This document shows positions 2,468-59,015 of a stretch of DNA of 64,000 nt, piece by piece. Source of the stretch: a virus. The stretch lies in IMG/VR virus record IMGVR_UViG_3300045988_115788, one strand, 5' to 3'. Within the stretch, counting starts at the first letter, position 1, and every line of letters starts with the position of its first letter. A program made the position numbers and the translations under genes. The notes below the pieces were generated by a model. The model did no database searches and was not told where the DNA came from. It saw nothing but the letters and a program-made list of their open reading frames with translations.

Positions 2468-3093
2468 CCCTCCTCTTCAATAGGTTCGATAGAAATTAAA
2501 TCCTTACGACACAGCTTACCTAGTTCAATTAGAATATTGGCATCAATTTCTTGCCCATTTAGCTTCTTTTCAGACACCATATCAATAATAATTTGCTTTT
2601 GGGTATCATTAGCATTTTTATATACATCTACTACATGTCTTGCGTTCATAGACAGTAGTTCTTTTAGTTGTGCATCTGTAATTAAATGAGCATACACCGC
2701 TTCAAGATTATGTTCCTTAACAAATTGTGCATCTGCAATATAAACAATACCATTGCGGATAGCATTATTCATATTAGACAAAATTGCTTCTGCTTCAGAT
2801 TCCATAATAGAACGACTATTAAATTGGCCTTCAATCTTCCAAATGGTCGTACCTTTCAGAACAAGAGTACCAGGAACCATAGATACAAACGTAATTTCAC
2901 GATTAGACTTTGTGGCTTGTGTAGGTTTGTCACCCATCATTTGTGCCATCAAAGCCATCTGTGCTTTTAGTTCTTCTAGCTGTGCTTTAAGTTCTTCTTT
3001 TTCTTTATCAACAGTAGAAGTTTTTTCAGTCTTGACTTTAGTTTCTTCTACTGTATTTTCTACTTCAGATTCAGACTTCTTTCTATAAGCCAT
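2464..3093 (-). CDS. hypothetical protein with charged coiled-coil N-terminus
   Basis: 209-aa ORF just downstream of capsid candidate; KEELKAQLEELKAQMALMAQ heptad-like stretch. Confidence 0.45.
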   Translation of the reverse strand: MAYRKKSESEVENTVEETKVKTEKTSTVDKEKEELKAQLEELKAQMALMAQMMGDKPTQATKSNREITFVSMVPGTLVLKGTTIWKIEGQFNSRSIMESEAEAILSNMNNAIRNGIVYIADAQFVKEHNLEAVYAHLITDAQLKELLSMNARHVVDVYKNANDTQKQIIIDMVSEKKLNGQEIDANILIELGKLCRKDLISIEPIEEEG

Positions 3094-3134
3094 TATTTTC
3101 TCCTTTTATAATCCTTTTATTCCTATATGCTTAA

Positions 3135-4175
3135 TTAAGCATCAATATTATAGACTCCTGCGTGTGCGGCACTTGCGTAAACAAAGTTAAATGCGCGGCG
3201 ATAAGTCTGATTGCTGGTAAGGTCAGCGTTATCGAAGAACTGATTACCGTTCTGGAAGCCAGCAGTCATAACGCCCTTAACAAGCTTATCCTGAGAAGGA
3301 GAAACAACAAAAATCTTGTTATCAGGTAGGATTAGCTTGCCAGCGGGAGAAACTGCGTTGTCTAGCTTCATTACAGTATAACCCATAATGGACTTTAGAA
3401 GCTCGATACGACCATTACCTTCGCCATCAACATTTAGACGATAGCCAGAAGTAGAATCAGGAATAACATTCATTAGAGCAGTAGCAGAGCCACAGATAAT
3501 AGGTCTTACACCAGAGTTGCGATACTGAACAGTTTCACACATCTGAACTAGAGTCTTCATATCAAAGGCACCAGTAACATTCTGAGCACCAACAGGAATA
3601 GATTCTAGGCCAGTCATTAGAGCACCTAGAGCATCGTCATACATAGCGTTCTCTAGGGAACGTACAACTAGGGTAAACATATCAGTAGGAGATTCCTTGC
3701 CAGACATAACACGGAACCAATCAGTATAAACAGTAATAATATGGTCGATAGGAGCCACAACCAGGTCAGTGTTATACTTCTTCTGTCTATGAGTGGTTCT
3801 CTCGCCATTTGCGCTCAGAGAAACAGTGTAAAAGCTATTAGGTTTGATGGTGAACTTGGTAATATCACCAGGAGCCTGAGTACGGAAATCGGCAAAAATA
3901 CCAAACTGAGGTAGAATGGTAGTAGGAATAATAGCATCAATTACAGCATCACGAACGGCAAAATAAGCCCACTGAACAGAGGGATTACTTGCCCAAGCCA
4001 TAGAATCAAGACCTTCACGAGAAACACCAGACTTACGTTCAATCTCAGAGAAGAAAGCCATATCTAGTAGATTCTTGTTCTCCTGAGACTGTTGCTTGTC
4101 GCAAAAATAAGAGACTGCGGCTTCATAAAAATCAGTCTTACCATCGGAGAACTTAATTAGTTCATTACTTAGCAT
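3135..4175 (-). CDS. major capsid protein candidate
   Basis: 346-aa ORF downstream of protease/scaffold; locally higher GC and biased codons as in highly expressed genes; call from position and size. Confidence 0.6.
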   Translation of the reverse strand: MLSNELIKFSDGKTDFYEAAVSYFCDKQQSQENKNLLDMAFFSEIERKSGVSREGLDSMAWASNPSVQWAYFAVRDAVIDAIIPTTILPQFGIFADFRTQAPGDITKFTIKPNSFYTVSLSANGERTTHRQKKYNTDLVVAPIDHIITVYTDWFRVMSGKESPTDMFTLVVRSLENAMYDDALGALMTGLESIPVGAQNVTGAFDMKTLVQMCETVQYRNSGVRPIICGSATALMNVIPDSTSGYRLNVDGEGNGRIELLKSIMGYTVMKLDNAVSPAGKLILPDNKIFVVSPSQDKLVKGVMTAGFQNGNQFFDNADLTSNQTYRRAFNFVYASAAHAGVYNIDA

Positions 4176-4204
4176 AATATATCAACACTCCTTTCTTTCT
4201 ATAA

Positions 4205-4768
4205 TTATAGCTGGTTAGCCATACAACGTAGTAGAACAGTAGGTACAATTTCATTGCCGCAAGCAATAGAATGTAGACCTTCTACCTTAAAATAAGCGCC
4301 AGAACTAGGAGCTTCAGCGACAGGAGCGGCATACTTACCGTTTGCGGCAGGAGCAACATACTGACCAATCTGAGCTAGAGTGGGTAGAGTTTCACCTACA
4401 AAAGCTTCCTTAGTAATTTCTAGCACATCAACACCAGACATAATAGCCTTGATGGACATGGGGCGACCGGCTTCATTATAGAAGTAACGAGGGTCAGACA
4501 TCATTTGCATTTCAATAGTATAACCAACTTCAGGGGTATTTACTACATATACATTGTTAGCCCCAGCCTTTGCGGGTTCAACAATATATTCAAAACCCTT
4601 AACTGCACCAGAAGTGCTATCATGATTGATTTCCTTTAGAGTAACTAGCGTACCATTATCTAGGTCGCCACCCGCATAAATACCAGCGTGATTTAGTGCA
4701 TCAACATCCCAGCACATGCAGTTCATCGTACTCACTACACAGTGATTCTTAGCCATATACGAAATCAT
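4205..4768 (-). CDS. hypothetical capsid-associated (decoration-like) protein
   Basis: 187-aa ORF between scaffold and capsid genes; real start may be the MAKNH methionine near 4753. Confidence 0.4.
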   Translation of the reverse strand: MISYMAKNHCVVSTMNCMCWDVDALNHAGIYAGGDLDNGTLVTLKEINHDSTSGAVKGFEYIVEPAKAGANNVYVVNTPEVGYTIEMQMMSDPRYFYNEAGRPMSIKAIMSGVDVLEITKEAFVGETLPTLAQIGQYVAPAANGKYAAPVAEAPSSGAYFKVEGLHSIACGNEIVPTVLLRCMANQL

Positions 4769-4791
4769 TCCTTTCTATATAAATTTTATTA

Positions 4792-6342
4792 TTAAATATT
4801 TTTCTTTAGGCGTTCCCAAACATTCTTAGGCTCGTCCTGAGATGGAGCAACAGGAGCAGAGAAAGACCAAATACTCTTCTTTTCCTTCTTGCCCTTAGAA
4901 GCTTCAAAAGATACGGCTTTAGCTTTATTCGTCCAACCATCAATTTCAGAGAACTTACACGCCATGCCTTCTGCCTTTAGAGATTCAAACTGTTCAGAAT
5001 TAACAAAGGGTTTAATTTCTTCAAGAGTTGCGGCAACAGCCATATTTCTCTTCTCTTCTTCCACGCCAGCCTTAAAAGCTCTTAGCTCTTCAAGCTCTTT
5101 GTCCTTTTCCATAATAATAGCGTCCTTATCCTCAATGTCCTTCTGTAGTTTTGCAATATCACACATAGCTACATCTTCAGACATCTTCTTTTCTTCGGGT
5201 TCGGACATTTTTTCATCTTCATCCTTGTTTTTATCTTTTTCAGAATCAGACTTGTCTTCGGGTGTAGGTTCAGCCATCTTTTCGGGTTCCTCAAGCTTAT
5301 TTAGCTTATCTTTATCTTCCATTTTAGCTTCACCCTCCTTTCCATTATCATCTAGTCCTAAAGACTTATAGATTTTATTTAGTTTATTGATAACTTCTGT
5401 CTCATTATGTTGTCTAGCATAAGCCAGAGCGCTTGCTAGTGCATTTCTATTATACACTACACTATCACCCTTAATTTGCATTACAGGATAACCTAGCTTC
5501 TCAGAAGGGGCTTCCTGCCACCCAGATTCAACTTTTAGATAAACATCATTAACAAGACTAGAAGCATTTTTAGCTTCAGTAATCTTCTTTCTTAAATCAG
5601 ACTTGTTCACATCTGACCAATCTGCATTAGAAAGAGATTCTTTAGACTTATCTACTTTATAACTTTTCTTTTCTTCCATTTGAACTTTCCTTTGATTTGA
5701 AAATTGTTCTAATTGAGTAGGATGCTTTTGTAATTCATTAAAGAAATTATTAGCTTCTTCTGAGAATCGAATAAGATTTATTTCTGCGTTTCTATCGCTA
5801 GGATTTACATAACGGCCAAGCACAGTCACGCCAAAAATATCAAAAGAAATAGGATTTACCTTTTCAATATCATCTTCTGCGAATTGACAAGTCATTTCTA
5901 TGGACACAGCTCTGTGGTTATGAGCTTTAAAAGCTTCATAAGCGTTATTAGCATACATTTTACTAAATACTGCATAAGCCCAAGCTTTGGTTACTGGTAC
6001 ACCGTTAACTTCTGTTTCTTCAAACTCGACTTCTTTCTCAACAGGAAAATAACCAATAGGTATTTCATCCCGTTCGTGCCCCATAAAATCATTTCCGAAC
6101 ATTCTTCCTACAAGAAATTGTCCGCGAACTGTACCCGCGTCTCTTCGCAAAATTTCATCCGTAATATTAAAGCCATGAGCATTTGGCCCCGTACTTAAAA
6201 TACAGACTTTTGCTATAGCAAACTTTTCATCATCATACTCTTGGAAATTCTCAATAATAGAATCATATTCAAAAGAGATTTTCTTTTCCAACAAATCCAC
6301 CTCCCTTCCCAGAGAGTTATTCTCCAATTTCTTCAATATCAA
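4792..6342 (-). CDS. prohead protease / scaffold fusion candidate
   Basis: 516 aa; globular N-terminal ~200 aa then a very long Lys/Glu/Asp-rich coiled region; sits between portal and capsid. Confidence 0.5.
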   Translation of the reverse strand: MILKKLENNSLGREVDLLEKKISFEYDSIIENFQEYDDEKFAIAKVCILSTGPNAHGFNITDEILRRDAGTVRGQFLVGRMFGNDFMGHERDEIPIGYFPVEKEVEFEETEVNGVPVTKAWAYAVFSKMYANNAYEAFKAHNHRAVSIEMTCQFAEDDIEKVNPISFDIFGVTVLGRYVNPSDRNAEINLIRFSEEANNFFNELQKHPTQLEQFSNQRKVQMEEKKSYKVDKSKESLSNADWSDVNKSDLRKKITEAKNASSLVNDVYLKVESGWQEAPSEKLGYPVMQIKGDSVVYNRNALASALAYARQHNETEVINKLNKIYKSLGLDDNGKEGEAKMEDKDKLNKLEEPEKMAEPTPEDKSDSEKDKNKDEDEKMSEPEEKKMSEDVAMCDIAKLQKDIEDKDAIIMEKDKELEELRAFKAGVEEEKRNMAVAATLEEIKPFVNSEQFESLKAEGMACKFSEIDGWTNKAKAVSFEASKGKKEKKSIWSFSAPVAPSQDEPKNVWERLKKNI

Positions 6343-6532
6343 TCCCTAATTTTTTGACAATTTTTAGGGTCTTTTTATTCTTTTTAAACCACAAAGTTCC
6401 ATCACCGCTTTTAAATTTAGGCACACAACCGGCTTGATGAAGATAAAAAGCATCATCGCCATCTAATGCAATATAATTAGTATAATCGCTAGGTTCACCT
6501 AATACTACCATTATTTGTCCCCCAAAATCCAA
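6317..6532 (-). CDS. hypothetical protein
   Basis: 71-aa ORF overlapping both neighbours in the operon. Confidence 0.35.
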   Translation of the reverse strand: MDFGGQIMVVLGEPSDYTNYIALDGDDAFYLHQAGCVPKFKSGDGTLWFKKNKKTLKIVKKLGIDIEEIGE

Positions 6533-7017
6533 AACGTAGAAATATCATGGTCAAAAGCCATTGCATTACTTCCATAAGCCTTAATCTTATCATGTAACAA
6601 GATAAGCTGTTCTACAATATTATTATAACCTCGAAGAATTTCAATAAGGTCACTATATACATGAATATCATTATTATCACAAGAAATTTTACAAGCCCCC
6701 ATGATGGCAATTTGAAATTCAATACTTCTAGCTTTCATTCTCGCAATAATTTCTTCTACGCTATTGTAATTCTCTTCTGCGGCAGGAGTCGCACCATATT
6801 TAACAGAAATGTTATATCGCTCTAAACATCTCGCTCCAAAATCATCAGCCAATGCAGGAAAAGCATGGGCAATGTTTTTATGAATTAGTTCGGCGCTATT
6901 ACTACAAGCAAAATCAACGCCAAGAACTGAAACCATTCTATCAAATGCACGGTTTTCTTCAAAGCATTTCTTAATCAGCTCTGTAACAGCTTGAATAGTA
7001 TTCTCACTTACAATCAT
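6511..7017 (-). CDS. hypothetical protein
   Basis: 168-aa ORF with GAGGGA-type SD; follows a 210-bp intergenic gap after the portal gene. Confidence 0.45.
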   Translation of the reverse strand: MIVSENTIQAVTELIKKCFEENRAFDRMVSVLGVDFACSNSAELIHKNIAHAFPALADDFGARCLERYNISVKYGATPAAEENYNSVEEIIARMKARSIEFQIAIMGACKISCDNNDIHVYSDLIEILRGYNNIVEQLILLHDKIKAYGSNAMAFDHDISTFWILGDK

Positions 7018-7228
7018 ATTTATCCCTCATTATAAATTAAAAAAATTTCTGAATAATTTTTTTACAATTCCAACGCATTATTACTACGCAATCACGTACA
7101 TCAATGCCGCCAGAAAAACACTGTCTATCCACAGAATTTTGTGTTCACAAAAATTATCCCAAACTTCCACAAAAGCATCTAAAATCTTTTGCTTTTTTGT
7201 CACTAATTTGGTATATTTTATCTTCCAA

Positions 7229-8698
7229 TTATTCATCAGGCATCAAATCCTCTCTTGAATCTGAACCAGAATCAGTTAAGGTATCATCAGCAATTCTAGG
7301 TCTGCCGCCTTCGCCGCCGCCCACCTGTTGACCAATATTGACATTAGCCATTAGCTGGCTATACTCATCTACCCAACCGCTAGATTTAGATTCTTGAAGC
7401 ATCTTTTCAAAATAGACAGGATTATACCCCAACACAGAAGCCCAAGCACTAGGCGGTAACACAAGACCTTTATCAGCAACTTTAGTTAGTTGGTCAAATC
7501 GTCTATTTCTTTCGTGTGCATAATTACTGCCATCAAAAATAAAATGGAATTTATACTTGCTAGTCAGTCTATTAGCATAAAAATCCATAAAATTCTCAAA
7601 CTGACCATAAACAGGACGTACAGTATTATAAACTTCATCTAATGCCGCTTGCAATTCTGCGTTAGACATTCTGTCAGAAGAATAAATAACACGACTAATG
7701 TTACTTCCAAGTCCAGCACTAATAGTTAATTGTTTTTCATAACTATCACTGTTAGTATCTTGAAATTGATACCATTTAGTGTTTTCTGTTGGAAGTGCCG
7801 CAAGTTTAACTGTTTCGCCTAAACCAGCTTTAGCTTTAGTCATAAATGCACCAACACTCTTTGGGTCAATAGCAAATTGATTAGCTTTGGTGCCACTCTT
7901 AGCATTATCAAACAGTCTTAATTCACCAGCAAGAATAGCGTGTGCCGCCGCAATGTCTTTGTTATACTGTAAAGCCCCAATTTCTTCATTTCTTAGAACA
8001 TCTTTTATATAAGGTGCTAAGAAAGGAACAGAATTAAAATTAGAGGTGTCAAACTTAAAGGCAAAAGCTCCATCACTGGGGTCAACATCGGCCCATAGAG
8101 CAAACTGGCCATCTCGATTACCAATACTTGCAGAAGGAATATAGGGCGCACCCTTGGCCTCCATAGTACGAATAAAAGTTTTCTTTAAGCTAGGGTCATA
8201 AGTATCAATATCTACACCGGCTTGAAGAAAATAATTCATGTTCATTGACCATAAAAGACCTCTATCAAAATATCCAGTCAACATACAATATTGTTGCGGC
8301 ATAACTTGTAAACAATATCTTGCTTTGCGCCCATTACCTGCTTTACTTTTTCTTAACCAAGTAAAATAGGTTTCATTAACAATGATGTTTTGTAATACAC
8401 GTCTAAATTCAGTTTTATAATCAAAATGAGTTATAAAATCTTCAATTTTCTTTTTGTCTTTTTTATATTGTGAAGTATTATAATCTGAAATATCTTCTGC
8501 ATTGATACATACTATTTGCATATCAAAAGACAAAGCATTTGCATAAGATAGTGCAACACGTTTAAACAACATATCGAAGTTCATCATATAAGCACTATAA
8601 TCTTGCAAATTTTGTTCATTTGCTTTATACTCGTTAAGAGCTTTTTTAATATCAATAGATGTCGGAATACTTGAACCATTGTTCAGTTCTTTCATCAA
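7229..8698 (-). CDS. portal protein candidate (frame open upstream to 8812)
   Basis: 489-aa ORF immediately downstream of the large terminase; acidic C-terminal tail; call from position and size. Confidence 0.6.
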   Translation of the reverse strand: MMKELNNGSSIPTSIDIKKALNEYKANEQNLQDYSAYMMNFDMLFKRVALSYANALSFDMQIVCINAEDISDYNTSQYKKDKKKIEDFITHFDYKTEFRRVLQNIIVNETYFTWLRKSKAGNGRKARYCLQVMPQQYCMLTGYFDRGLLWSMNMNYFLQAGVDIDTYDPSLKKTFIRTMEAKGAPYIPSASIGNRDGQFALWADVDPSDGAFAFKFDTSNFNSVPFLAPYIKDVLRNEEIGALQYNKDIAAAHAILAGELRLFDNAKSGTKANQFAIDPKSVGAFMTKAKAGLGETVKLAALPTENTKWYQFQDTNSDSYEKQLTISAGLGSNISRVIYSSDRMSNAELQAALDEVYNTVRPVYGQFENFMDFYANRLTSKYKFHFIFDGSNYAHERNRRFDQLTKVADKGLVLPPSAWASVLGYNPVYFEKMLQESKSSGWVDEYSQLMANVNIGQQVGGGEGGRPRIADDTLTDSGSDSREDLMPDE

Positions 8699-8836: not shown

Positions 8837-10153
8837 TTACCATACACATTGAATATCATCAATATTCAAATCGTAATCAAACAACTGTTTGTTCCATGCG
8901 TTCTCAATTAAGTCAAACACATGGTTGGCATAACTTAAAACCACAATACGGTCTTTCTTTTTGTTTCTACGTTCAGACAATATAACTTTGTCCATCTTGA
9001 TAGTAGTTTGTAGATTGATAGCTTCATCAATTAAATCTTCTGTCTCGTTAAATGGCATAAGTTTATCAATATATTGTTCTGAAGTAAGTTCAAAATACTC
9101 TCCACTATCTTCCATCAAAGTTCGTTTCGTTTCAAGAGGACAAAGAAATCTAAACGTATTAGCTTCTAATTGTTTTTTCAAAGATACCCAGTTCATACTA
9201 TTAAACTCAGTTGTACCAATAATTGGTATAATACATTTAATAGCAAGTGGGTCAACAGTACGCATTACCAAGTCTTCTTGCTTTGCAGGTGGTATATCCA
9301 TATATTGACGATTATCGGTCAAAGTCAAACCATGAGAATCCCAATTATTACCACGCTCTTCACAATCTTGCGGTTCAGTAAGTTTATTATAAATAACTTC
9401 TCCGCCCGAACGCTGGTCAATAACAACATAGTCAGCGTCATAATCTGCTCTAAGCTTCTTAATTCTTAATGCCGCACCAAGACCATCTCCACCAGGATAT
9501 GTTTCAAGATAATCGACATGACGTTCAAAATGATTTTTCTTCCAGTGTCCAGAAATACACATCATAATAGTGTTGTCCGATTTATGCGCTCCTGTCGAAT
9601 TTGTAAAAGCAAAGTCAACCACAACTAATCTTACTTCATTTTCATCTTTAGGCGGATTTCTGCCTTTGTCTAATCCTGTTAAAACTTCCATATCGGTAGG
9701 TGGCATAAAAGCATTTTCCAGCTTCTGATTTTTCTTAAAAGGAGCAAGAGAGAAAAACGAATCTTCATTTTCGCCTACTGCTTCATTAAGGTATTCAATT
9801 CTGAAATTCAACTCAGTGCTGTTTTTCTTAGCTCTTTTAATGTCACCTATCGTTTTCAATCCATTATTTAAAGTGGTAAAAATATCTGCCGCATAAATAT
9901 TGTATTTAATATGTTTATCAGTATAATACCCAGTAACATACTCGGTAAATGTGCGATACCACCATTCAAATTTATATCCAGAAGAAGTCAAAAAATAAGT
10001 TTTTGATTGTTCTACCCATCTTGGATTTTTTACATATATTTGTTTATCTAAATATATAGGTTGTCGAGGATATAGCATCGGCTCGAAAATGGAATCAACA
10101 TCGGATTTCTTTAATAATCGACATTCGTCATAAAAGAGAAAATTGGCGCGAGA
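8837..10153 (-). CDS. terL: terminase large subunit, exon 2 (Walker B + nuclease domain)
   Basis: Begins SRANFLFYDEC (hhhhDE Walker B); later VVVDFAFT and VVIDQRSGG acidic strands typical of the RNaseH-like nuclease. Confidence 0.75.
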   Translation of the reverse strand, partial: SRANFLFYDECRLLKKSDVDSIFEPMLYPRQPIYLDKQIYVKNPRWVEQSKTYFLTSSGYKFEWWYRTFTEYVTGYYTDKHIKYNIYAADIFTTLNNGLKTIGDIKRAKKNSTELNFRIEYLNEAVGENEDSFFSLAPFKKNQKLENAFMPPTDMEVLTGLDKGRNPPKDENEVRLVVVDFAFTNSTGAHKSDNTIMMCISGHWKKNHFERHVDYLETYPGGDGLGAALRIKKLRADYDADYVVIDQRSGGEVIYNKLTEPQDCEERGNNWDSHGLTLTDNRQYMDIPPAKQEDLVMRTVDPLAIKCIIPIIGTTEFNSMNWVSLKKQLEANTFRFLCPLETKRTLMEDSGEYFELTSEQYIDKLMPFNETEDLIDEAINLQTTIKMDKVILSERRNKKKDRIVVLSYANHVFDLIENAWNKQLFDYDLNIDDIQCVW

Positions 10154-10465
10154 CAATAATGTTATCGTATAAACTTTTTATTTTATACTTCTTACAGTTC
10201 GTTTCCTGCAAGTTCGGCATATCTTTTCATCCCATAGGGAGTCGGGAACTCTTGCGAACATTATATTCTTCTTTCAAAGTTTCAGTTCGTATGCTCTGCA
10301 TGTGACTGCGCTTTTAAACACAGCCTTCCATTCGGATTGGCATTTCAGCTTCCCCGCTTCTTTCCCGATTTGTAACTATTTGTTGCCAAATAGAGAGGCA
10401 ATCGCTATTTTCTCTTATTTTTTTGCATCTCTCGATTTATTTATATAATGTTATAATTGTCATTT
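10154..10465 (-). mobile_element. probable ORF-less group I intron in terL (boundaries tentative)
   Basis: 312-nt gap between two terL fragments; GC-richer than flanks; ends in G; contains GAAAAGAUAUGCC (J8/7-like) and GCCUCU complementary to exon end AGAGGU. Confidence 0.5.
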
Positions 10466-10990
10466 ACCTCTTGAACTAGAAACAGGCCCCATCACCTTTA
10501 ATGTTGAATTATTAAGAGTATTCGTTATAGTTGTTCCTTCATTTGGCTTAGTGATTTTCAAAAAATCTTTTTCATACAAGTACAATAAATAAGGAGATAA
10601 TTTGTTAATTAACTCCTTGATGATTTTATCTTCTACCATTTTATTTGCTTGCTCGACAGTAGAGGCAGTTATGACAATCCAACTATTCGGATACAAACAT
10701 AATGCACACGTAGCTGCGATAGCAGACAAAAAAGTTTTTGAAACACCACGCCCTGCTCTGAAAAAGAAAGAATCAGAAACTCCCATTAAATGCAAAGCTT
10801 CTCTTTGAAATGGCTTTAATCCAATACCAAGATAAAACTCTGCATAAATTTCCCAATTTCTTCTAAATAAAGTTGTCCACTCTATAGCATTTTCTATCGC
10901 TTCGTCTTCGATTTTATCTTTGCCAGTAGTAGAACGTATTCGGTCAGCTCTAAAAGCCTTGGTCAATGCTCTAGTATGAGGTCTAGCCAT
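10466..10990 (-). CDS. terL: terminase large subunit, exon 1 (Walker A)
   Basis: AGRGVSKT P-loop-like motif; fragment ends ...VSSSRG just before the Walker B encoded by exon 2. Confidence 0.75.
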
Positions 10991-12105: not shown

Positions 12106-13338
12106 TCAGTTAAGTATATAAGTTTTTTGCCAAGTCTTTTTTCCATCATTTTCAATCATAAAAAACAAAGCACCAGCTTTTGCAATCTTTCTTTGTTTCT
12201 TTGAAAAATCATCAATGCCCACAATAGATGGAACATGGATAACTTGTTGCTCACCAGACTTGCCACCATAACCAATACTATTTTGTTCGCCATGATGTAA
12301 ATGACCCGCAATCAAAATATCTATATCTACATTATGATAAGTTTGCCAATAATTGATTTCAGGAACATCCTTCTTGCTTCTATCACCATGATAAGCAAGA
12401 ATCTTTGTTCCCTTGATATTTTCATAAGCAAACTCTCCATAAGCTTCTACGATAATGTTTGGATTATCTTTCAATCGTAAAGAGATAAATTCACGAATAA
12501 TCTTGCCAAAATTTTCATCTGCAAAATCCCCTGCCTTGGCATTGAGCAGTCTAATTTCACAATGATTACCACCTAGACAATGGTATTTAATTGGCACCTT
12601 AATTCGCTTCTGTAACTCTGTAAGCCAAATAGATATGTAATTAGCGTATTCCAGTGCCGCGTCAACTACGCCCATTTTAAGGCGCACCAAGTCGGTCATA
12701 CGCAACGCACCTTGCAAAGCATCTCCTAAATCAAATACTTGCAAAGCATCATATTGGCAAAATTCTTCTGCATCCGAAGTTAGTTCAGATAACAGATTTT
12801 CCATTCTTTGTCTAAATACACTAGGATTATATAGATTAACAGTGTGACCAAAAACATCTTTCATGTTAATATCGACACCATAATGAGCATCAGCTATGCA
12901 AAGAACACCAATATTATTAGACTTAGTATTTTTCAACTCACCATTTTTAATAGGTTCTAGCGCGGGTAATCTTTTAATGGCGTCAACAATCTGCTCTGCA
13001 AATAATTTATCTCTTGCCTTTGCACGTTGAATTTGATTATATTCAAGATTCACAGTCTGTAGCTTTAATCGTTCTTCTTGAATATTTTCTTTCAATGCCA
13101 TAAGGTCAAGTTCTTCTGGGGTCTTGTCTTGCTTTCTTAAAGCTTCATCAACTTCACACAATTCAAGAAATCTTCTCATAAACATATTACATCGACGAGT
13201 TGTTTCAGAAGAATAAATATTCTCTCCTAAAATCATTTCGCCCCATTCATCAATATCAATAAGACGCTTTTCATAAGCATCGGTTACTCTCTTTGCAAAG
13301 GCAACATAGCTTTCATCTTTTTGTTTATCTTGTATCAT
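12106..13338 (-). CDS. calcineurin-like metallophosphoesterase
   Basis: Motifs ADAHYG, DLGDALQG, GGNHCE, GHLHHGE in canonical order. Confidence 0.7.
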   Translation of the reverse strand: MIQDKQKDESYVAFAKRVTDAYEKRLIDIDEWGEMILGENIYSSETTRRCNMFMRRFLELCEVDEALRKQDKTPEELDLMALKENIQEERLKLQTVNLEYNQIQRAKARDKLFAEQIVDAIKRLPALEPIKNGELKNTKSNNIGVLCIADAHYGVDINMKDVFGHTVNLYNPSVFRQRMENLLSELTSDAEEFCQYDALQVFDLGDALQGALRMTDLVRLKMGVVDAALEYANYISIWLTELQKRIKVPIKYHCLGGNHCEIRLLNAKAGDFADENFGKIIREFISLRLKDNPNIIVEAYGEFAYENIKGTKILAYHGDRSKKDVPEINYWQTYHNVDIDILIAGHLHHGEQNSIGYGGKSGEQQVIHVPSIVGIDDFSKKQRKIAKAGALFFMIENDGKKTWQKTYILN

Positions 13339-13445
13339 AATGACCTCTCAAAAATTAGTATTGTCCCCTAAAAGATGTATTAAAATCAAAAATTTTAAAT
13401 TTTGTTGTTAGTGTATAACTGAAATAATTAAAACAAATAAGTGCT

Positions 13446-13484
13446 AACAAAAAGCGCCACAAGACAATAATCTCGTAGCGCTTT
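13446..13484 (-). terminator. possible terminator after the RNA polymerase gene
   Basis: AAAGCGC/GCGCTTT stem (20-nt loop) followed by a T-run on the minus strand. Confidence 0.35.
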
Positions 13485-13488
13485 AAAT

Positions 13489-14155
13489 TTAGTTTCTTAA
13501 ATCAGCCATACATTCTTTTGATTTTCTTTTTCTTGATTCTCTAAAACATTTTTCACCACAATAAACTTGACTATCTTTTTCTGCCTTAAAGCGTTTTCCA
13601 CACTGAGGACAAATTTTTCCTAGATTGGCAGTGTTCACTTTCAAGTTTCCGACAATTTCTCTTCCGAAAGCACCCCACAATATTTTCTTCTTTGAGTTGG
13701 GCCGCACAGTATACAAATAAGTTACTAATGTGTTAATCACATAATCAAGACTTTTTTCTGTTGATTTTAACACCTTTTCACGAATTTGTTGATACATATA
13801 CGTTTCTTCTTTATTTACTCTATCTTCTGTTGTAGAATTAAATAGATATTGATGAGTATTCCAATAATCGTAAGTCTTGATAATCTCGCTATCAGAAGAA
13901 ATAGTAAATTCTTCTTTTTGATTCATTAACATTCGATAATCAAACTTACTTATTGTTTTACAATAACTAATCCTACTAGAAGGAATAGATTTACTAATAC
14001 GATTCATAGTTGAATCATTTGGTTTTTCAACTTGGTCTTTTGATTTATCTTTTGCAAACTCAAAGAAAGCTGGTAGCTTATTCTTTGTATATGACTTCAT
14101 CAACCTTTCTATGTCTTCTGGCGGTTCTGACAACCATAATGTTTTTGCGTAATCT
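13489..14155 (-). CDS. YonO/RdRP-like single-subunit RNA polymerase, exon 3
   Basis: In-frame extension upstream of ORF 13489..14133 reads DYAKTLW, completing the family VDxxKT motif; C-terminal CPQCG...CGEKC zinc ribbon. Confidence 0.7.
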
Positions 14156-14477
14156 CATTTCTACCGTCTTTTTCAAGATACTTTAACTTTGCTCAAAGCA
14201 AACGGATTAGACTATATCTTTACTTCATACTGAAGCAACTGGCACTTCAAAAATAGGAATTTCGCCTATTTTTTACTCCTTAAAAGGATAGTCGTTGCAC
14301 CTTCCCAGCAGGGCTTGGCACAGGATTGGCATGATAATTGTTTTTGTAAAATTTTTTAAACAATTATTTTAGCTATCCCCTGTTAGCCATTACTCTAATC
14401 ATCATTTCCTATGATTCCTATTCGTAGTAATGACACCCTATATTTATAGGTTCACCAGTTTAAGTGACCGATTGTTA
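14156..14477 (-). mobile_element. group I intron 2 in RNA polymerase gene (ORF-less)
   Basis: P1 AGUGAU|uaacaaucgGUCACU with U.G at splice site; terminal G at 14156; AAGAUAUAGUCUAA core (14207-14220); 80-nt core shared with intron 1. Confidence 0.7.
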
Positions 14478-14763
14478 ATCACTTGGTTGTTCCTCATGCA
14501 GAGCCATTTAACAATATTTAATTGTTCTTCTCCAACAGTTCCGCAATTCCACACCTTAGAAATATTATTTGACACAATTCCAATATTGCCGCCATTATAA
14601 GCCGCAATCATTCCATCGTACATTGTATTATTGTTAATCTCTTGACTTTTTGCTTTCTTTAATTCATACGCTAATGGAACTATACCTTCCATATTGCGCT
14701 TGGCGACTGTTGTTAATGTTTTATCTTTTATCACTAGCAATTTATCACCGTCACAATCGACAG
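14478..14763 (-). CDS. YonO/RdRP-like RNA polymerase, exon 2 (catalytic DxDGD)
   Basis: Reads (S)VDCDGDKLLVIKD...IGIVSNNISKVW...WLCMRNNQV(I); DxDGD is the metal-binding loop of two-barrel RNAPs and RdRPs. Confidence 0.7.
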
Positions 14764-15753
14764 CCTACTAACATAGTAGGTTAGACTATATCTTAACCAT
14801 GCCCTTTCAGGTTTAGGTTCTTCGCACTTCCACTTAAAGAATTTCACTTTAAATGTACTTTACTCGGTTACTCGGTTACACCTAAAAACGGTGCTTTCCT
14901 ATCCTTTCAATAGTCGTTTGAGATTTTATTTAAACTTACTTCAAACAGTCACTCTTTATATCTTTTATTTTTCTTCACATTACATTGCAAAGTGTGTGGA
15001 TTATAGTTGTGCGCTCGTGCAAAATCAGCAAGGCAAGTGACTTCTTCTTTTTCACCAGTTACAGAATTATAAGCATATCCACTGTATTTTCTTCTTGAGC
15101 GGTCAGAATTTGCTTTTCTTGAAATCCATCGACAATTATCTGCAACATAATTTTTATTTCCATTTATTCTATCTATTGTTAAATTATCACTATAACCATT
15201 GCTTTTTGCCCAAGCAGAAAAATTACTATAATCTAACCACTCTTCACATATAACAACACCTTTTCCACCATAATATTTATATGCTACGTTATTAGGATTA
15301 TAACATCTATCTTTCATGTCGCACCAAATTTGATACAATCTAGTTTTACTTTCGCCATGTTTTAAACCATGTTCATGTTTCCGCGACTCCCAATAACATC
15401 CGCAACTCATAGTGTTTCCACTTTTTAAATGTCTACCATAAACTACAACTTCTTTTCCACAATCACATTTACATTTCCATCGACTCATTCCATTTTGAAC
15501 ATCATAAAACTCCAAAACAGTAAGCATATTAAATTTTTGTCCTTTTAAATCTAGTCTTTTTGGCATTTTTACACCCCCTTTTTTGTTTTTGTAAGTTTAA
15601 ATAACTTTCCACAGGATTGCATTTCTGTTTCCCCTGTTAGCCATTATCCTAATCATCATTTCCTATGACTCCTTAACGTGATAATGACACCCTATATTTA
15701 TAGGTTCACGAAGTTTTATATCCTCATGTTTCCAAGAGGTACAGCAAGATTTT
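14764..15753 (-). mobile_element. group I intron 1 in RNA polymerase gene, carrying an HNH ORF
   Basis: P1 ACAGU|aaaaucuuGCUGU with U.G; terminal G at 14764; AAGAUAUAGUCUAA core (14781-14794); 15631-15710 nearly identical to 14377-14456. Confidence 0.7.
14949..15566 (-). CDS. intron-encoded HNH-type (His-Me finger) homing endonuclease
   Basis: 205 aa; WKCKCDCG...SCGC zinc motif shared with the 22305 and 37440 endonucleases; TIDRINGNKNYVADNCRWIS motif; lies inside intron 1. Confidence 0.7.
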   Translation of the reverse strand: MPKRLDLKGQKFNMLTVLEFYDVQNGMSRWKCKCDCGKEVVVYGRHLKSGNTMSCGCYWESRKHEHGLKHGESKTRLYQIWCDMKDRCYNPNNVAYKYYGGKGVVICEEWLDYSNFSAWAKSNGYSDNLTIDRINGNKNYVADNCRWISRKANSDRSRRKYSGYAYNSVTGEKEEVTCLADFARAHNYNPHTLQCNVKKNKRYKE

Positions 15754-17377
15754 ACTGTAAAATGCGACTAATTAAATCTCTAGTGCTAGTATAAATACAT
15801 TGTGTATTGCCAAACCATTTCTCAGTTAATTCATTCCGAACATTCTTTCTAATAGGCCACTCTCTGTAAAGATGAGGGCTTCTTAAACAAGCTAACTCTG
15901 AACCATTTCTAAAATTTTTAGTATAAACCTCTCCATCTTCAAGAAGTCCTTTTGGATTCTTTTCGCCTAAAAACAGCCATTGACAAAAAGCAAATAAATC
16001 TGGTGACACAAATTCATATTCACCATTAACTCTAAGCCTTCCTGCTTTCGCTTGTTTGATTAGACTCTTTTTGGTTTGCTTTAAAACATCTCTGCTGTAA
16101 GGGTCGCGAAACAATTCAGGATAAATCATTACAGCTTTTTGGAACCATGATTTTTCTTCATTTTCTTCAACAGCTCCAATCAATTTCATAGTAGTTCTAA
16201 AATCTTTACCTATATTTTCAGCTTCAAATTTAGACTGTTGAGTAATTTTTTCGATTTCTTTATCACTCATATCCGTCAAAGTCTGAAGCATCTGATAATT
16301 GATTTTAGCTTTAGGAATATTTTCTTCTTCTACATTACAGCAAGAAAATTCACAGCCATATTTTTTAAAATAATATTTATACTCTTCCCAAGAATAATAA
16401 ATTTTGTTCAACTTGAACTGACTAGCCGTAAGGATATTTTGAATATTTTCTTTAACAATATCATGCTTAATACCGTATATATCCTCTACAATAGCTCTGC
16501 CGCCAGGACAATACTCTTTTATCCAAGATTGAAAATCAAAAGAAACAAGTAAACCTTTTATCCACGGAGCGCGAACCATTCTTGTAGGAGACAACATTGT
16601 TATACCACAACCATCTGTATGTGGAATCGGTGTTTCTGTCCATTCTCGCGTAATTTCATAAGTTCGATAGTCAATAAAATCAACATGTCCAAAAACGCCT
16701 GTTTCAAAATCCGAAACAACAATAGTCCTATCAATGTCAAACTCAGGCCAAAAATCAGTAGCCGAATTATTCAAAGCAAGATAAGCACTATACTTATTTA
16801 CATTCATGCCGCCACGTCGGTTTAATTCTTCGGGAGTTAAGCCGCACATCATTTTCTTTTGAATAGCTAAATAAGCCGATTCTTTAACAAAAACTGCACG
16901 TTTTGTTCGTATTTGCCCAGCAGAAGCCGTTAATAGAATATATTTTTCATTATTATGAACAAATCCATTTTTAACAATTCCTTCAAACACTTGGAAGAAA
17001 AATACGCTTACAATCATAATGTCTTCTGTCAGTTCATTGGTTTTTATTCCTAATGCTCTAGTTAAAGAAGATTCAAAAAGAGAAATCACATTTTTGTCTT
17101 TCAATTCCTCTGGATTTAATTGCCGCGGCGAAGTATCTTTTAACCGTTCGTTCAATAAATCAGTCAATCTTTGCTTTTCCTTTTTTATGACTCTATTAAC
17201 AGAAGCTTTCTTCCATTTTTCTTCTAAGCCATCTTTCTTTTTCTTCTTTTTCTTTTCGTCTAAATTCTTTTTTAATTTATACAGCTTCAGCAAACGCCTA
17301 TGAACATATCTCTCTTCGCCTTCATAAAAAGCATCTGTTCCAATTCCATAAAGGTGTATTTGCTTATCAAGCGCCAT
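15754..17377 (-). CDS. YonO/RdRP-like RNA polymerase, exon 1
   Basis: 541-aa fragment ending LRSPHLYREWP...IYTSTRDLISRILQ, matching the (K/R)xPxLHxxD...SG(G)DxDGD architecture of cellular-type RdRPs. Confidence 0.7.
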
Positions 17378-17478
17378 TAAATCACCTTAACTTTCCATTT
17401 GAAAAACTGCAACATATATTCATTTGTCAAAATTTTTTCCTCCTAAAAATGCTTATTGGTTCTTTTAAACCCAATATT

Positions 17479-17507
17479 ACTATACCATACTTTTTATTTT
17501 TTGTCAA
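17479..17507 (-). promoter_or_regulatory. sigma-A-type promoter with extended -10 for the RNA polymerase gene
   Basis: Minus strand TTGACA-17 nt-TGgTATAGT about 100 nt upstream of the start at 17377. Confidence 0.65.
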
Positions 17508-17551
17508 GAAACAAAAGCAGAGCCAGACAAAAATCTGACCCTACCATATAT

Positions 17552-17824
17552 TCAACAAATTTCTCCTTGTCTCGACGGCACTTCTCCCGTATAAGCAACA
17601 AAAGATTCCCCATACATCCTTTGACTACCACAATCTGTAACATCTTCAGGGTGACATAGCATAACAATTCCAATCCCTTCAACAACATCAGCGCCCCAAG
17701 GAATGGCCCAATAACCGCTATTTTCCATTGCTTCAAGAATGTATACAGGAGTTCCTTGTCTTTCTAATAATTCTTCCCATGTCAGCATTTTAGGTTCTAC
17801 TTTATTCATCTCCAAGTTTCTCAT
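17552..17824 (-). CDS. hypothetical protein
   Basis: Track ORF 17552..17845; AGGAGGA precedes the ATG at 17824; overlaps the deaminase 3' end. Confidence 0.45.
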   Translation of the reverse strand: MRNLEMNKVEPKMLTWEELLERQGTPVYILEAMENSGYWAIPWGADVVEGIGIVMLCHPEDVTDCGSQRMYGESFVAYTGEVPSRQGEIC

Positions 17825-18257
17825 AACACCATCCTCCTGGTTCATCTAAAGTATAATATACATTCTTAATTCCCATAGACTTGATAATGCCGCCACATGC
17901 TGGACAATATCTAGCTAATCCTTGACTTCCATCTTTTTTAATTCTATAAGTAAATAAATGCGCCTTGCTGAAATCAATATTAGCGCCCCTAGCTCTAATC
18001 AAACAAGAACACTCACTATGAATTGTATTCTTTACACCAGAGCAATTTGGGTCAAATCCTCTAAGAGCATTATACTCTTTTTGTAAAGGCGAAGTTTTTT
18101 CGCCTTCATTGTAGCCAATAGAAATAATTCGTCCTTTATAGACAAGAACGCTCCCCAATTTAGCTCTTTTATTGTTACTATAATGAGAAGCGTTCCTTGC
18201 CAGCTCGAAATATTTCTGTACTCTTTTATCAGAAAGTCTCGACATTTTTTCTACCAC
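17802..18257 (-). CDS. dCMP (deoxycytidylate) deaminase
   Basis: Zinc-binding HSE...CPAC cytidine/dCMP deaminase motifs; GTG start abuts the TAA of the upstream small ORF. Confidence 0.75.
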   Translation of the reverse strand: MVEKMSRLSDKRVQKYFELARNASHYSNNKRAKLGSVLVYKGRIISIGYNEGEKTSPLQKEYNALRGFDPNCSGVKNTIHSECSCLIRARGANIDFSKAHLFTYRIKKDGSQGLARYCPACGGIIKSMGIKNVYYTLDEPGGWCYEKLGDE

Positions 18258-33018: not shown

Positions 33019-33221
33019 AAAAGTATAAGTATACAAAAAAACACGCGTAAGAATGTGTAGAAGCCTACGCCCATTTGACGGGGTGGTTTGACGAAAGCAT
33101 AACTCAACGAGAAATGTTTGAGATGCTACGGTACAGGATGCAGTTTGGAGAAGCCGAAAGCCGAGTGATTGTTGCGGCGCTGGTTATGGCAGGAGCAAAA
33201 TTCAAAACAAGCGCAGAGTGA
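33015..33221 (+). pseudogene. small ORF interrupted by an in-frame TAA at codon 12
   Basis: Coupled ATG start, MKKYKYTKKHA-TAA-ECVEAYAHLTGWFDES...KFKTSAE; 56 open codons after the stop lack their own SD or start. Confidence 0.45.
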
Positions 33222-33292
33222 CGGGGGAGCAATCCCCTGGTAATGCGGCTAAGAGTGGTCACAAGCCCACCGCAAAGAAAGGATGGTTTTTT

Positions 33293-39070: not shown

Positions 39071-39147
39071 GGGCCTTTAGCTCAGTTGGTTAGAGCCTCC
39101 AGCTCATAACTGGAAGGTCGTGGTTTCGATTACCACAGGGCCCACCA
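39071..39147 (+). tRNA. tRNA with CAU anticodon (Met or lysidine-Ile), canonical cloverleaf, encoded CCA
   Basis: GGGCCTT/AGGGCCC acceptor, GCTC-AGTTGGTTA-GAGC D arm, loop CTCATAA, GTGGT-TTCGATT-ACCAC T arm. Confidence 0.85.
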
Positions 39148-39375: not shown

Positions 39376-39450
39376 ACTGGTGTAGCTCAATTGGTAGAGC
39401 GACTGCCTTGTAGCAGCAGGTCGGGGGGTCGAGTCCGTCCACCAGCTCCA
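39376..39450 (+). tRNA. tRNA-Thr(UGU)-like gene with aberrant anticodon arm
   Basis: D arm TAGCTCAATTGGTAGAGC and CTTGTA loop core resemble Firmicute tRNA-Thr; loop is 6 nt (or 9 in alternative fold); A1:C72 mismatch; encoded CCA. Confidence 0.5.
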
Positions 39451-40326: not shown

Positions 40327-40445
40327 ACAGAGAAATTGCAATCTTGAGGTGTCGTTACACCTGTATGTTGTGGAGGGTTACACAAACTTGAGTAGCTTTG
40401 GCGAAAGAGAATCCAATGAAACAGTAAGTTGATTTTTAATTAACA
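40327..40445 (+). ncRNA. omega-RNA-like right end of the TnpB remnant
   Basis: Structured tail; CACAAACTTGAGTAGCTTTGGC is homologous to 58910-58936 downstream of the other remnant. Confidence 0.4.
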
Positions 40446-58841: not shown

Positions 58842-59015
58842 CATAACACTTTCAAGTTATTACAGATATGTACTGATATGTTAGTCAGGAATTTACGCCT
58901 ATGGAGAGCACAAGAACTTGTGAGTAGTGATTGGCTTGTCAACACAAAAACATACTCGTTGAAGTAGGAATGGAACATAAAAGTTTATAACTTTTTATAA
59001 GTTTTCAGTAACGGA
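58842..59015 (+). ncRNA. omega-RNA-like tail of the truncated TnpB, abutting the dnaE start
   Basis: CACAAGAACTTGTGAGTAGTGATTGGC is homologous to the tail of the 40074 remnant; ends a few nt before the ATG at 59022. Confidence 0.4.

Follow-up and report, generated by a model that had tools for sequence, protein, structure and literature searches.

An experimentally spliced group I intron is present in the large terminase gene (terL) of Lactobacillus phage LL-H. Splicing of group I introns in the same gene has also been demonstrated experimentally in SIOphi and phiAGATE of the Bastillevirinae (PMC11878797) and in the Jug jumbo phages of the gut (PMC12880540), with cDNA sequencing and metatranscriptomes as evidence (PMC11878797, PMC12880540). 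The terL gene considered here lies on the minus strand, at positions 8837 to 10990, of a stretch of viral DNA of 64,000 nucleotides (nt; IMG/VR record IMGVR_UViG_3300045988_115788), the whole of which is referred to as the window; it is interrupted by 312 nt that very probably constitute an IA1-like group I intron devoid of any open reading frame (ORF). Another known case is JCL1032 (EU409559), a Lactobacillus delbrueckii phage, whose tape-measure intron was reported by Tourasse and Kolsto (2008) as a BLASTN match of term-IVS1 from Bacillus cereus, an intron described in turn as homologous to the IA1-class TMP-IVS3 introns of B. cereus-group prophages (PMC2504315).

A covariance model built from the family of the window intron (R1, see below) finds two copies in JCL1032, in terL and in the tape-measure gene (86.7 and 83.7 bits), and the terL of this phage is annotated as a two-exon join around its family member. 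The JCL1032 introns share with that of the window the RNA family, the core words, the layout of P7.1/P7.1a, P9 and P9.1, and terL as a host gene; however, the JCL1032 terL intron lies within Walker A (GRKNG-KT, a hyphen marking here and below the intron position), whereas the window intron lies ahead of Walker B. The phages differ as well, being siphoviruses of Lactobacillus and Bacillus on one side and an SPbeta-like gut phage on the other, with the B. cereus link drawn through PMC2504315. P1 is adapted by the family to its various target sites, and some copies carry an endonuclease gene while others do not. The introns of the Bastillevirinae, the Jug phages and LL-H likewise interrupt terL, which splicing restores, often at conserved ATPase motifs and with or without homing endonuclease genes, but they belong to other lineages, LL-H giving only a weak match with R1 (24 bits). 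The Bastillevirinae and Jug introns came to light through Rfam, GISSD or GISSD-derived subtype models; the Rfam model RF00028, on the other hand, misses the family in the window, and its incomplete coverage of phage introns has already been pointed out (PMC11878797). The loss of an endonuclease gene also has a precedent, published in 2000 and cited in PMC11878797, which equally comprises, among close relatives, intron-less, endonuclease-bearing and endonuclease-deleted alleles with the ribozyme spared, but concerns a different gene, intron family and endonuclease type, the ORF at the window site having sat in the P1 loop.

The interrupted terminase gene and its uninterrupted counterpart

The 5′ ORF (10460..10990) encodes 176 amino acids, contains FFFRAGRGVSKTF and has the C-terminus ...VSSSRGK, and the 3′ ORF (8837..10156) starts with TTG one codon upstream of SRANFLFYDEC; both are on the minus strand. 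When GGT (10466) is joined to TCT (10153), an open frame of 613 amino acids results, which reads ...CAAGAGGT-TCTCGCGCC... at the junction. The two ORFs are the halves of a single large terminase in the genome of an SPbeta-like gut phage. The first is related to large-terminase families by PHROGs, and the second matches in tblastn the C-terminal two-thirds of the large terminases of SPbeta-like phages, such as Enterocloster phage PMBT24 (41% identity), Thomasclavelia phage TR-TP1, SPbeta (YonF) and phiCD211, among others; since the terminase is a single gene of 589–632 codons in these phages, the ORFs of the window are two pieces of one gene. A portal gene (7229..8698) is located directly downstream.

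The alignment of the joined protein with the terminases of PMBT24, SPbeta (YonF) and TR-TP1 crosses the junction without a gap. Both Walker motifs are present in the protein (A, and B as hhhhDE), and the conserved RG stands eight residues ahead of DE. A profile made of the joined protein and three homologues aligns to T4 gp17 (3EZK, 2O0H, 3CPE) from Walker A to Walker B (E=4.5e-4), with SSSRG-SRANFLFYDE over DAVRG NSFAMIYIDE and the T4 gp17 DAVRGNSFAMIYIDE paired with SSSRGSRANFLFYDE, in agreement with the gp17-type spacing between RG and DE that the original prediction had named. The Pfam scores of the joined protein are below the cut-off for both Terminase_6N (19.2 bits, cut-off 22) and Terminase_6C (12.9 bits, cut-off 22.6), and those of the homologues are above it (YonF 35.0, PMBT24 24.3, and TR-TP1 23.9 for 6N and 28.4 for 6C); neither ORF gives a Pfam match when taken separately.

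The limits of the insert are provided by G001, the nearest virus record, in which both exons are matched at 98% with nothing between them (exon identity 98.2%) and the missing DNA is exactly 10154–10465. The G001 DNA across the site is ...TCTAGCTCAAGGGGC TCGAGAGCCAAT..., with AGCTCAAGGGGCTCGAGAGCC as the intron-less site, and the encoded protein is uninterrupted, with 613 amino acids (...VSSSRGSRANFLFYDEC..., that is, SSSRG-SRANFLFYDEC), of which four differ from the joined protein of the window. This uninterrupted gene proves the junction GGU-UCU and sets the boundary at which the last base of the intron (10154) is G. The limits that had been proposed as tentative from the window sequence (312 nt, GGU-...G-UCU) are thus correct to the base, and the terminal G, the 613-residue joined product and a G+C content higher than that of the flanks (0.41–0.45 within the insert vs about 0.23–0.36) were all borne out; the terminases of related phages are intact, lack the insert and are not split into two polypeptides, as the intron reading had anticipated.

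Predicted fold and subgroup

The fold was derived by eye from homologous phage sequences, and its part from P2 to P9.1, including the P3/P7 pseudoknot, was evaluated on nine copies aligned with MAFFT (A1), in which 97.6% of 531 cells are in standard pairs, vs 30–39% when the partners are slid by 1–3 columns, and compensatory double changes are found in 42 of the 59 pairs; none of 500 shuffles reaches any of these measures. In an alignment of 126 copies, 93.8% of cells are paired, vs 34–44% when slid, and double changes affect all 53 pairs (53/53). The full fold extends from P1 to P9.1 and includes the P3/P7 pseudoknot, P7.1/P7.1a, a U.G pair at the splice site and the terminal G (Table 1), the crossing of P3 and P7 being the pseudoknot that defines group I introns. 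The very probable assignment to group I rests on this pseudoknot, the covariation, the U.G pair of the exon end and the terminal G, so that the group I intron of the original prediction is upheld by comparative structure and by the splice-site rules alike.

P7, which is presumed to be the guanosine-binding helix, is paired in 100% of cells and covaries in two of its six pairs (GC to AU and AU to GC), the pair beside the bulged A changing from GC to AU with the bulge retained; P9 and P9.1 are also 100% paired, with covariation in 5/7 and 7/7 pairs, respectively. The word originally regarded as J8/7-like, GAAAAGATATGCC, is at 10216–10228, and GAAAAGAUAUGCC falls within the P8-J8/7-P7 stretch. 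The P1 that had been proposed, AGAGGU with GCCUCU, a U.G pair and a large loop, proved to be right: no stretch other than AGAGGU in the 160 nt upstream matches the guide sequence at 6/6 positions, the pairing is identical in the same-site copy of locus L006, and that of locus L089 has AGGGGU/GCCCCU, which is compensatory with respect to AGAGGU/GCCUCU in the window. In alignments A1 and A2, conservation extends to the loops of P6 (UUUAAAAG) and P9.1 (AUAAAAAG), which resemble each other and may be tertiary-contact motifs. A possible P10, between UCGC...AUUUU of exon 2 and AAAAU.GCGA of the intron just 5′ of the guide, was noticed by eye and is not claimed.

Subgroup IA1, in the definition ascribed to Michel and Westhof (1990), is said to combine an extra P7.1/P7.1a, which separates P7 from the 3′ strand of P3, with a P2 and the lack of P5abc. 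The IA1-like label of the window intron is based on the nested P7.1/P7.1a, an element characteristic of subgroup IA that is present and covarying, together with the indirect link through JCL1032 to IA1 introns (PMC2504315). The window copy has no ORF on the intron strand, and so encodes no homing endonuclease. Two antisense ORFs on the plus strand (10159..10305 and 10302..10448) were treated as spurious.

Table 1. Coordinates of the terminase exons, the predicted group I intron and its proposed helices in the window, and of family copies at a second terminase site in other loci (positions in the respective locus).
Feature	Position	Strand	Description
terL exon 1	10466..10990	-	175 codons; N-terminal part of the ATPase with Walker A (RAGRGVSKT); last residues ...SSSRG, last codon GGU
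terL exon 2	8837..10153	-	438 codons and stop; first residues SRANFLFYDEC (Walker B); remainder of the ATPase and RNaseH-like nuclease domain
Predicted group I intron	10154..10465	-	312 nt, without ORF; absent to the base from G001
P1 5′ strand	10466..10471	-	Final exon hexanucleotide, AGAGGU; its U forms the U.G pair of the splice site
P1 loop	10400..10465	-	66 nt, A+T-rich
Internal guide sequence (P1 3′ strand)	10394..10399	-	GCCUCU; begins after 66 nt of intron
P2 hairpin	10376..10393	-	CUAUUUG-GCAA-CAAAUAG, GNRA loop; compensatory changes in 7/7 pairs
P3 5′ strand	10363..10368	-	UCGGGA; partner 10242-10247; compensatory changes in 5/6 pairs
Reduced P4-P6	10304..10356	-	P4 CGGG/UCCG; small P5, loop UGAAAU; P6 GGCUGUG-UUUAAAAG-CGCAGUC
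P7 5′ strand	10290..10296	-	G[A]GCAUA, bulged A; partner 10216-10221; pseudoknot with P3
P7.1	10255..10289	-	CGAAC/GUUCG around small hairpin P7.1a and conserved word AGAAUAUAAU; 5/5 P7.1 pairs covary
P3 3′ strand	10242..10247	-	UCCCGA; partner 10363-10368
P8, J8/7, P7 3′ strand	10216..10240	-	P8 UCCC-UAU-GGGA; J8/7 UGAAAAGA; P7 3′ strand UAUGCC
P9, P9.1, tail	10154..10212	-	P9 CUUGCAG/CUGUAAG; P9.1 GUAUAAA-AUAAAAAG-UUUAUAC; tail GAUAACAUUAUUG to terminal G (10154)
Second-site copy, L009	2992-4115		
Second-site copy, L081	6466-6713		
Second-site copy, L084	8794-9047		
Second-site copy, L035	6833-7037		
Second-site copy, L052	1408-1588		
Second-site copy, L075	4350-4583		

Three alleles and the loss of an endonuclease gene

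The exact 5′ junction word is found in two further viral contigs, and the intron-less junction only in G001. The terminase site is without intron in G001 and carries the 312-nt intron with no ORF in the window; in the independent contig G003 it carries the same ORF-less 312-nt intron, with four changes in the intron, and in G002 the same intron at the same site but with 1171 nt and a LAGLIDADG ORF. The P1 loop of G002 measures 925 nt and contains an ORF of 320 amino acids with two LAGLIDADG motifs (Pfam LAGLIDADG_3, 41.1 bits). The window intron is the G002 intron minus nt 39–897 (859 nt), with an AGA microhomology at the breakpoints; the breakpoint is between intron nt 38 and 39 (window 10428 and 10427), and the remaining 312 nt (38 before and 274 after it) differ from G002 at three positions. 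Since the window intron is an exact 859-nt deletion derivative of that of G002, its 66-nt P1 loop is the scar of the deleted endonuclease gene, which accounts for the large loop that the original prediction had needed for P1. A related LAGLIDADG ORF is located in the same P1 loop in L089; direct alignment of the window P1 loop to L089 and L046, as a remnant of the endonuclease, was not significant (22–41 of 300 shuffles scored equally high).

Between the window and G002, 309 of 312 intron positions and 1767 of 1842 exon positions are identical (Fisher p=0.0046), and this closer likeness of the introns is consistent with lateral transfer by homing. The exons of the window and G001 differ at 33 positions, six of which are clustered within −10..+5 of the junction and are all synonymous (P about 2e-6, for that fixed interval), the junction codons being AGT TCA AGA GGT-TCT CGC in the window, with AGTTCAAGAGGTTCTCGCGCC as the exon bases at the target site, and AGC TCA AGG GGC TCG AGA in G001. 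This cluster could stem from co-conversion, mark an allele resistant to cleavage or reflect selection for P1/P10 pairing. In the history proposed here, homing would have brought in the intron while its P1 loop still held a LAGLIDADG endonuclease gene; the 859-nt deletion in the lineage of the window removed that gene and left an intron that would now be immobile by itself.

The intron family in other phages

In a sensitive blastn search of the gene against GenBank phages, only the insert matched stretches in unrelated phages, at about 70–80% identity. A search of IMG/VR with one conserved 14-base word of the P7.1 region, AGAAUAUAAU, retrieved the family in more than 111 stretches at least, and R1 detects 126 copies in the first 95 of these loci, with up to nine per locus. 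The window intron is a member of this family, as the single R1 copy of the window (10154–10401) scores 259 bits, the fourth best of the 126. R1 gave no match in SPbeta, PMBT24, TR-TP1, Twort, T4, Tuc2009, PH15, K1E or DT1.

The terminase position RG-xR is occupied in at least nine other loci (L006, L013, L009, L046, L048, L084, L089, L100 and L025), and an insert at the same codon is present in Enterocloster phages CB457P1/P2 and CB473P1-3 (...LDSARG-ERATF...). In Enterocloster phages CB457P2 and CB457P1 (L006 and L013, respectively) the terminase is annotated as three 'hypothetical proteins' with two introns inside, one of the present family at RG-ER and one, near residue 421, that is canonical and matched by RF00028 (96 bits), the latter followed by an I-TevI-like endonuclease gene. 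A second terminase site, at about residues 421–429 (after DYVVID), is occupied by the family in other loci (Table 1) and uninterrupted in the window.

Outside the terminase, an unannotated member with 156 bits (L007, AJ972879.2 244624-244903) lies between g328 and g329 of Yersinia phage phiR1-37 and splits its gyrase A, of which exon 2 resumes just ahead of YHPHGD. Tape-measure inserts are present in two Streptococcus phages, MissB1 and Javan355, the latter insert having a GIY-YIG-like ORF. The member of Oenococcus phage Krappator149 (L008 2371-2644, 116 bits), in the head-tail region, lies under four short antisense 'hypothetical protein' coding sequences, which are probably annotation artefacts over the intron, and the metagenomic phage MT835481 has homologues of the insert at two places. 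The density of copies is very high in L020, an IMG/VR contig with nine R1 matches in about 4.8 kb (3002-7756). On balance, these data point to a large IA1-like phage family unseen by RF00028, which repeatedly targets two terminase sites, gyrase and tape-measure genes, and which surveys and databases seeded with RF00028 may systematically under-count.

A resemblance between the J8/7 region of the insert and the introns proposed for the RNA polymerase genes of the window had also been put forward, but this likeness is at chance level (29 matches at ≤3 mismatches vs 28.3 expected). The region of the RNA polymerase introns (13000-18000) has no Rfam match at E≤1 and no R1 match, and no second copy of the terminase intron is found in the window by blastn, word search or R1, which suggests that the RNA polymerase introns belong to a different lineage.

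Proposed splicing and alternative explanations

Following established group I chemistry, terL would be transcribed through the intron and the RNA would fold into the group I core, in which the guide GCCUCU would pair with the exon end AGAGGU; free guanosine would attack after the U of AGAGGU, and the terminal G would then dock in its place, allowing the exons to be ligated (GGU-UCU) into the message of one terminase of 613 amino acids. In the unspliced RNA, ribosomes would be halted by the in-frame UGA two codons into the intron (AAA UGA), a stop shortly inside the intron being a common feature of such introns (PMC2504315).

Several points weigh against a functional group I intron. Catalysis and in vivo splicing of the window copy are deduced from DNA, and, within this analysis, so is splicing of the other family members. 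P4 and P5 are very short (4 and 2–3 base pairs), with an A.C outer pair of P5 in the window, and P8 is the weakest helix (80.6% paired). RF00028 gave no match to the insert, either at the gathering score on the window or at E≤10 on 10050-10560 (511 nt). Finally, the homing-cycle model comprises intron gain, endonuclease loss and intron loss, and the window intron, having lost its endonuclease gene, is at the stage after which introns are expected to start decaying.

Regarding the Rfam result, RF00028 also missed the family members covered by three further Rfam searches, in which a different, canonical intron was found in L006, L013 and L046 at 88–96 bits; as the model finds canonical introns and misses members of the family, the absence of a match is read as a sensitivity gap. 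The lack of an intron-model match, which the original prediction had named as evidence against itself, is therefore true for Rfam, but is overridden by the purpose-built covariance model and the comparative structure.

The expected decay raises the alternative that the intron no longer splices, the terminase gene being dead and the phage defective or rescued by co-infecting relatives. The deletion of the endonuclease gene and the fact that splicing of the window copy is read from DNA only are compatible with this; nevertheless, it is very unlikely, since every helix is intact in an intron that ranks among the best R1 matches and is only three positions away from the endonuclease-bearing G002, both exons are open and encode a protein nearly identical to the intact one of G001 (4/613 residues), and the independent contig G003 keeps the same ORF-less form despite its four intron changes. 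It is highly improbable that the terminase consists of two separate polypeptides (176 and about 439 amino acids) associating without splicing: although both ORFs are open and an in-frame TTG stands one codon before the junction, this TTG is not preceded by a Shine-Dalgarno sequence but by the conserved intron tail GAUAACAUUAUUG, the break would separate the conserved RG from Walker B inside the ATPase fold, the protein is a single chain in all relatives, and the spacer is a conserved, covarying ribozyme fold. Since no Rfam family matches the insert, another kind of element might be considered, such as a translational bypass signal, a fragment of a group II intron or a small DNA transposon, but this is hardly credible: neither terminal inverted repeats nor a target duplication is present, no extra base remains where the flanks join, the topology with its P3/P7 pseudoknot, U.G pair and terminal G is specific to group I, and 312 nt far exceeds, to our knowledge, any translational bypass.

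Further RNAs in the window

Rfam places a Type-P5 twister ribozyme (RF02684) at 33212-33270 on the plus strand, with 62.1 bits (gathering score 37.6), and RAGATH-18 RNAs (RF03064) at 58898-58970 and 40367-40427, also on the plus strand, with 67.6 and 55.3 bits; the latter is near two tRNA genes (39071-39144 and 39376-39447).

Implications

A group I intron in terL is nothing new in kind, since such introns are known from LL-H, JCL1032, B. cereus prophages, Bastillevirinae and Jug phages, and the deletion of an endonuclease gene is known too; the points of modest interest are the base-exact series of three alleles and the large family invisible to RF00028. With the intron reading, the two 'hypothetical' ORFs of the window should be annotated as one joined terL, a correction equally needed for Enterocloster phages CB457P1/P2 and CB473P1-3, gyrA of Yersinia phage phiR1-37 and many IMG/VR contigs. 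A common phage intron family escapes the standard Rfam model, and R1 could be reused. The near-identical gut phages with three alleles at the same site, together with the synonymous cluster at the target, offer a natural set-up for the study of homing and endonuclease loss.

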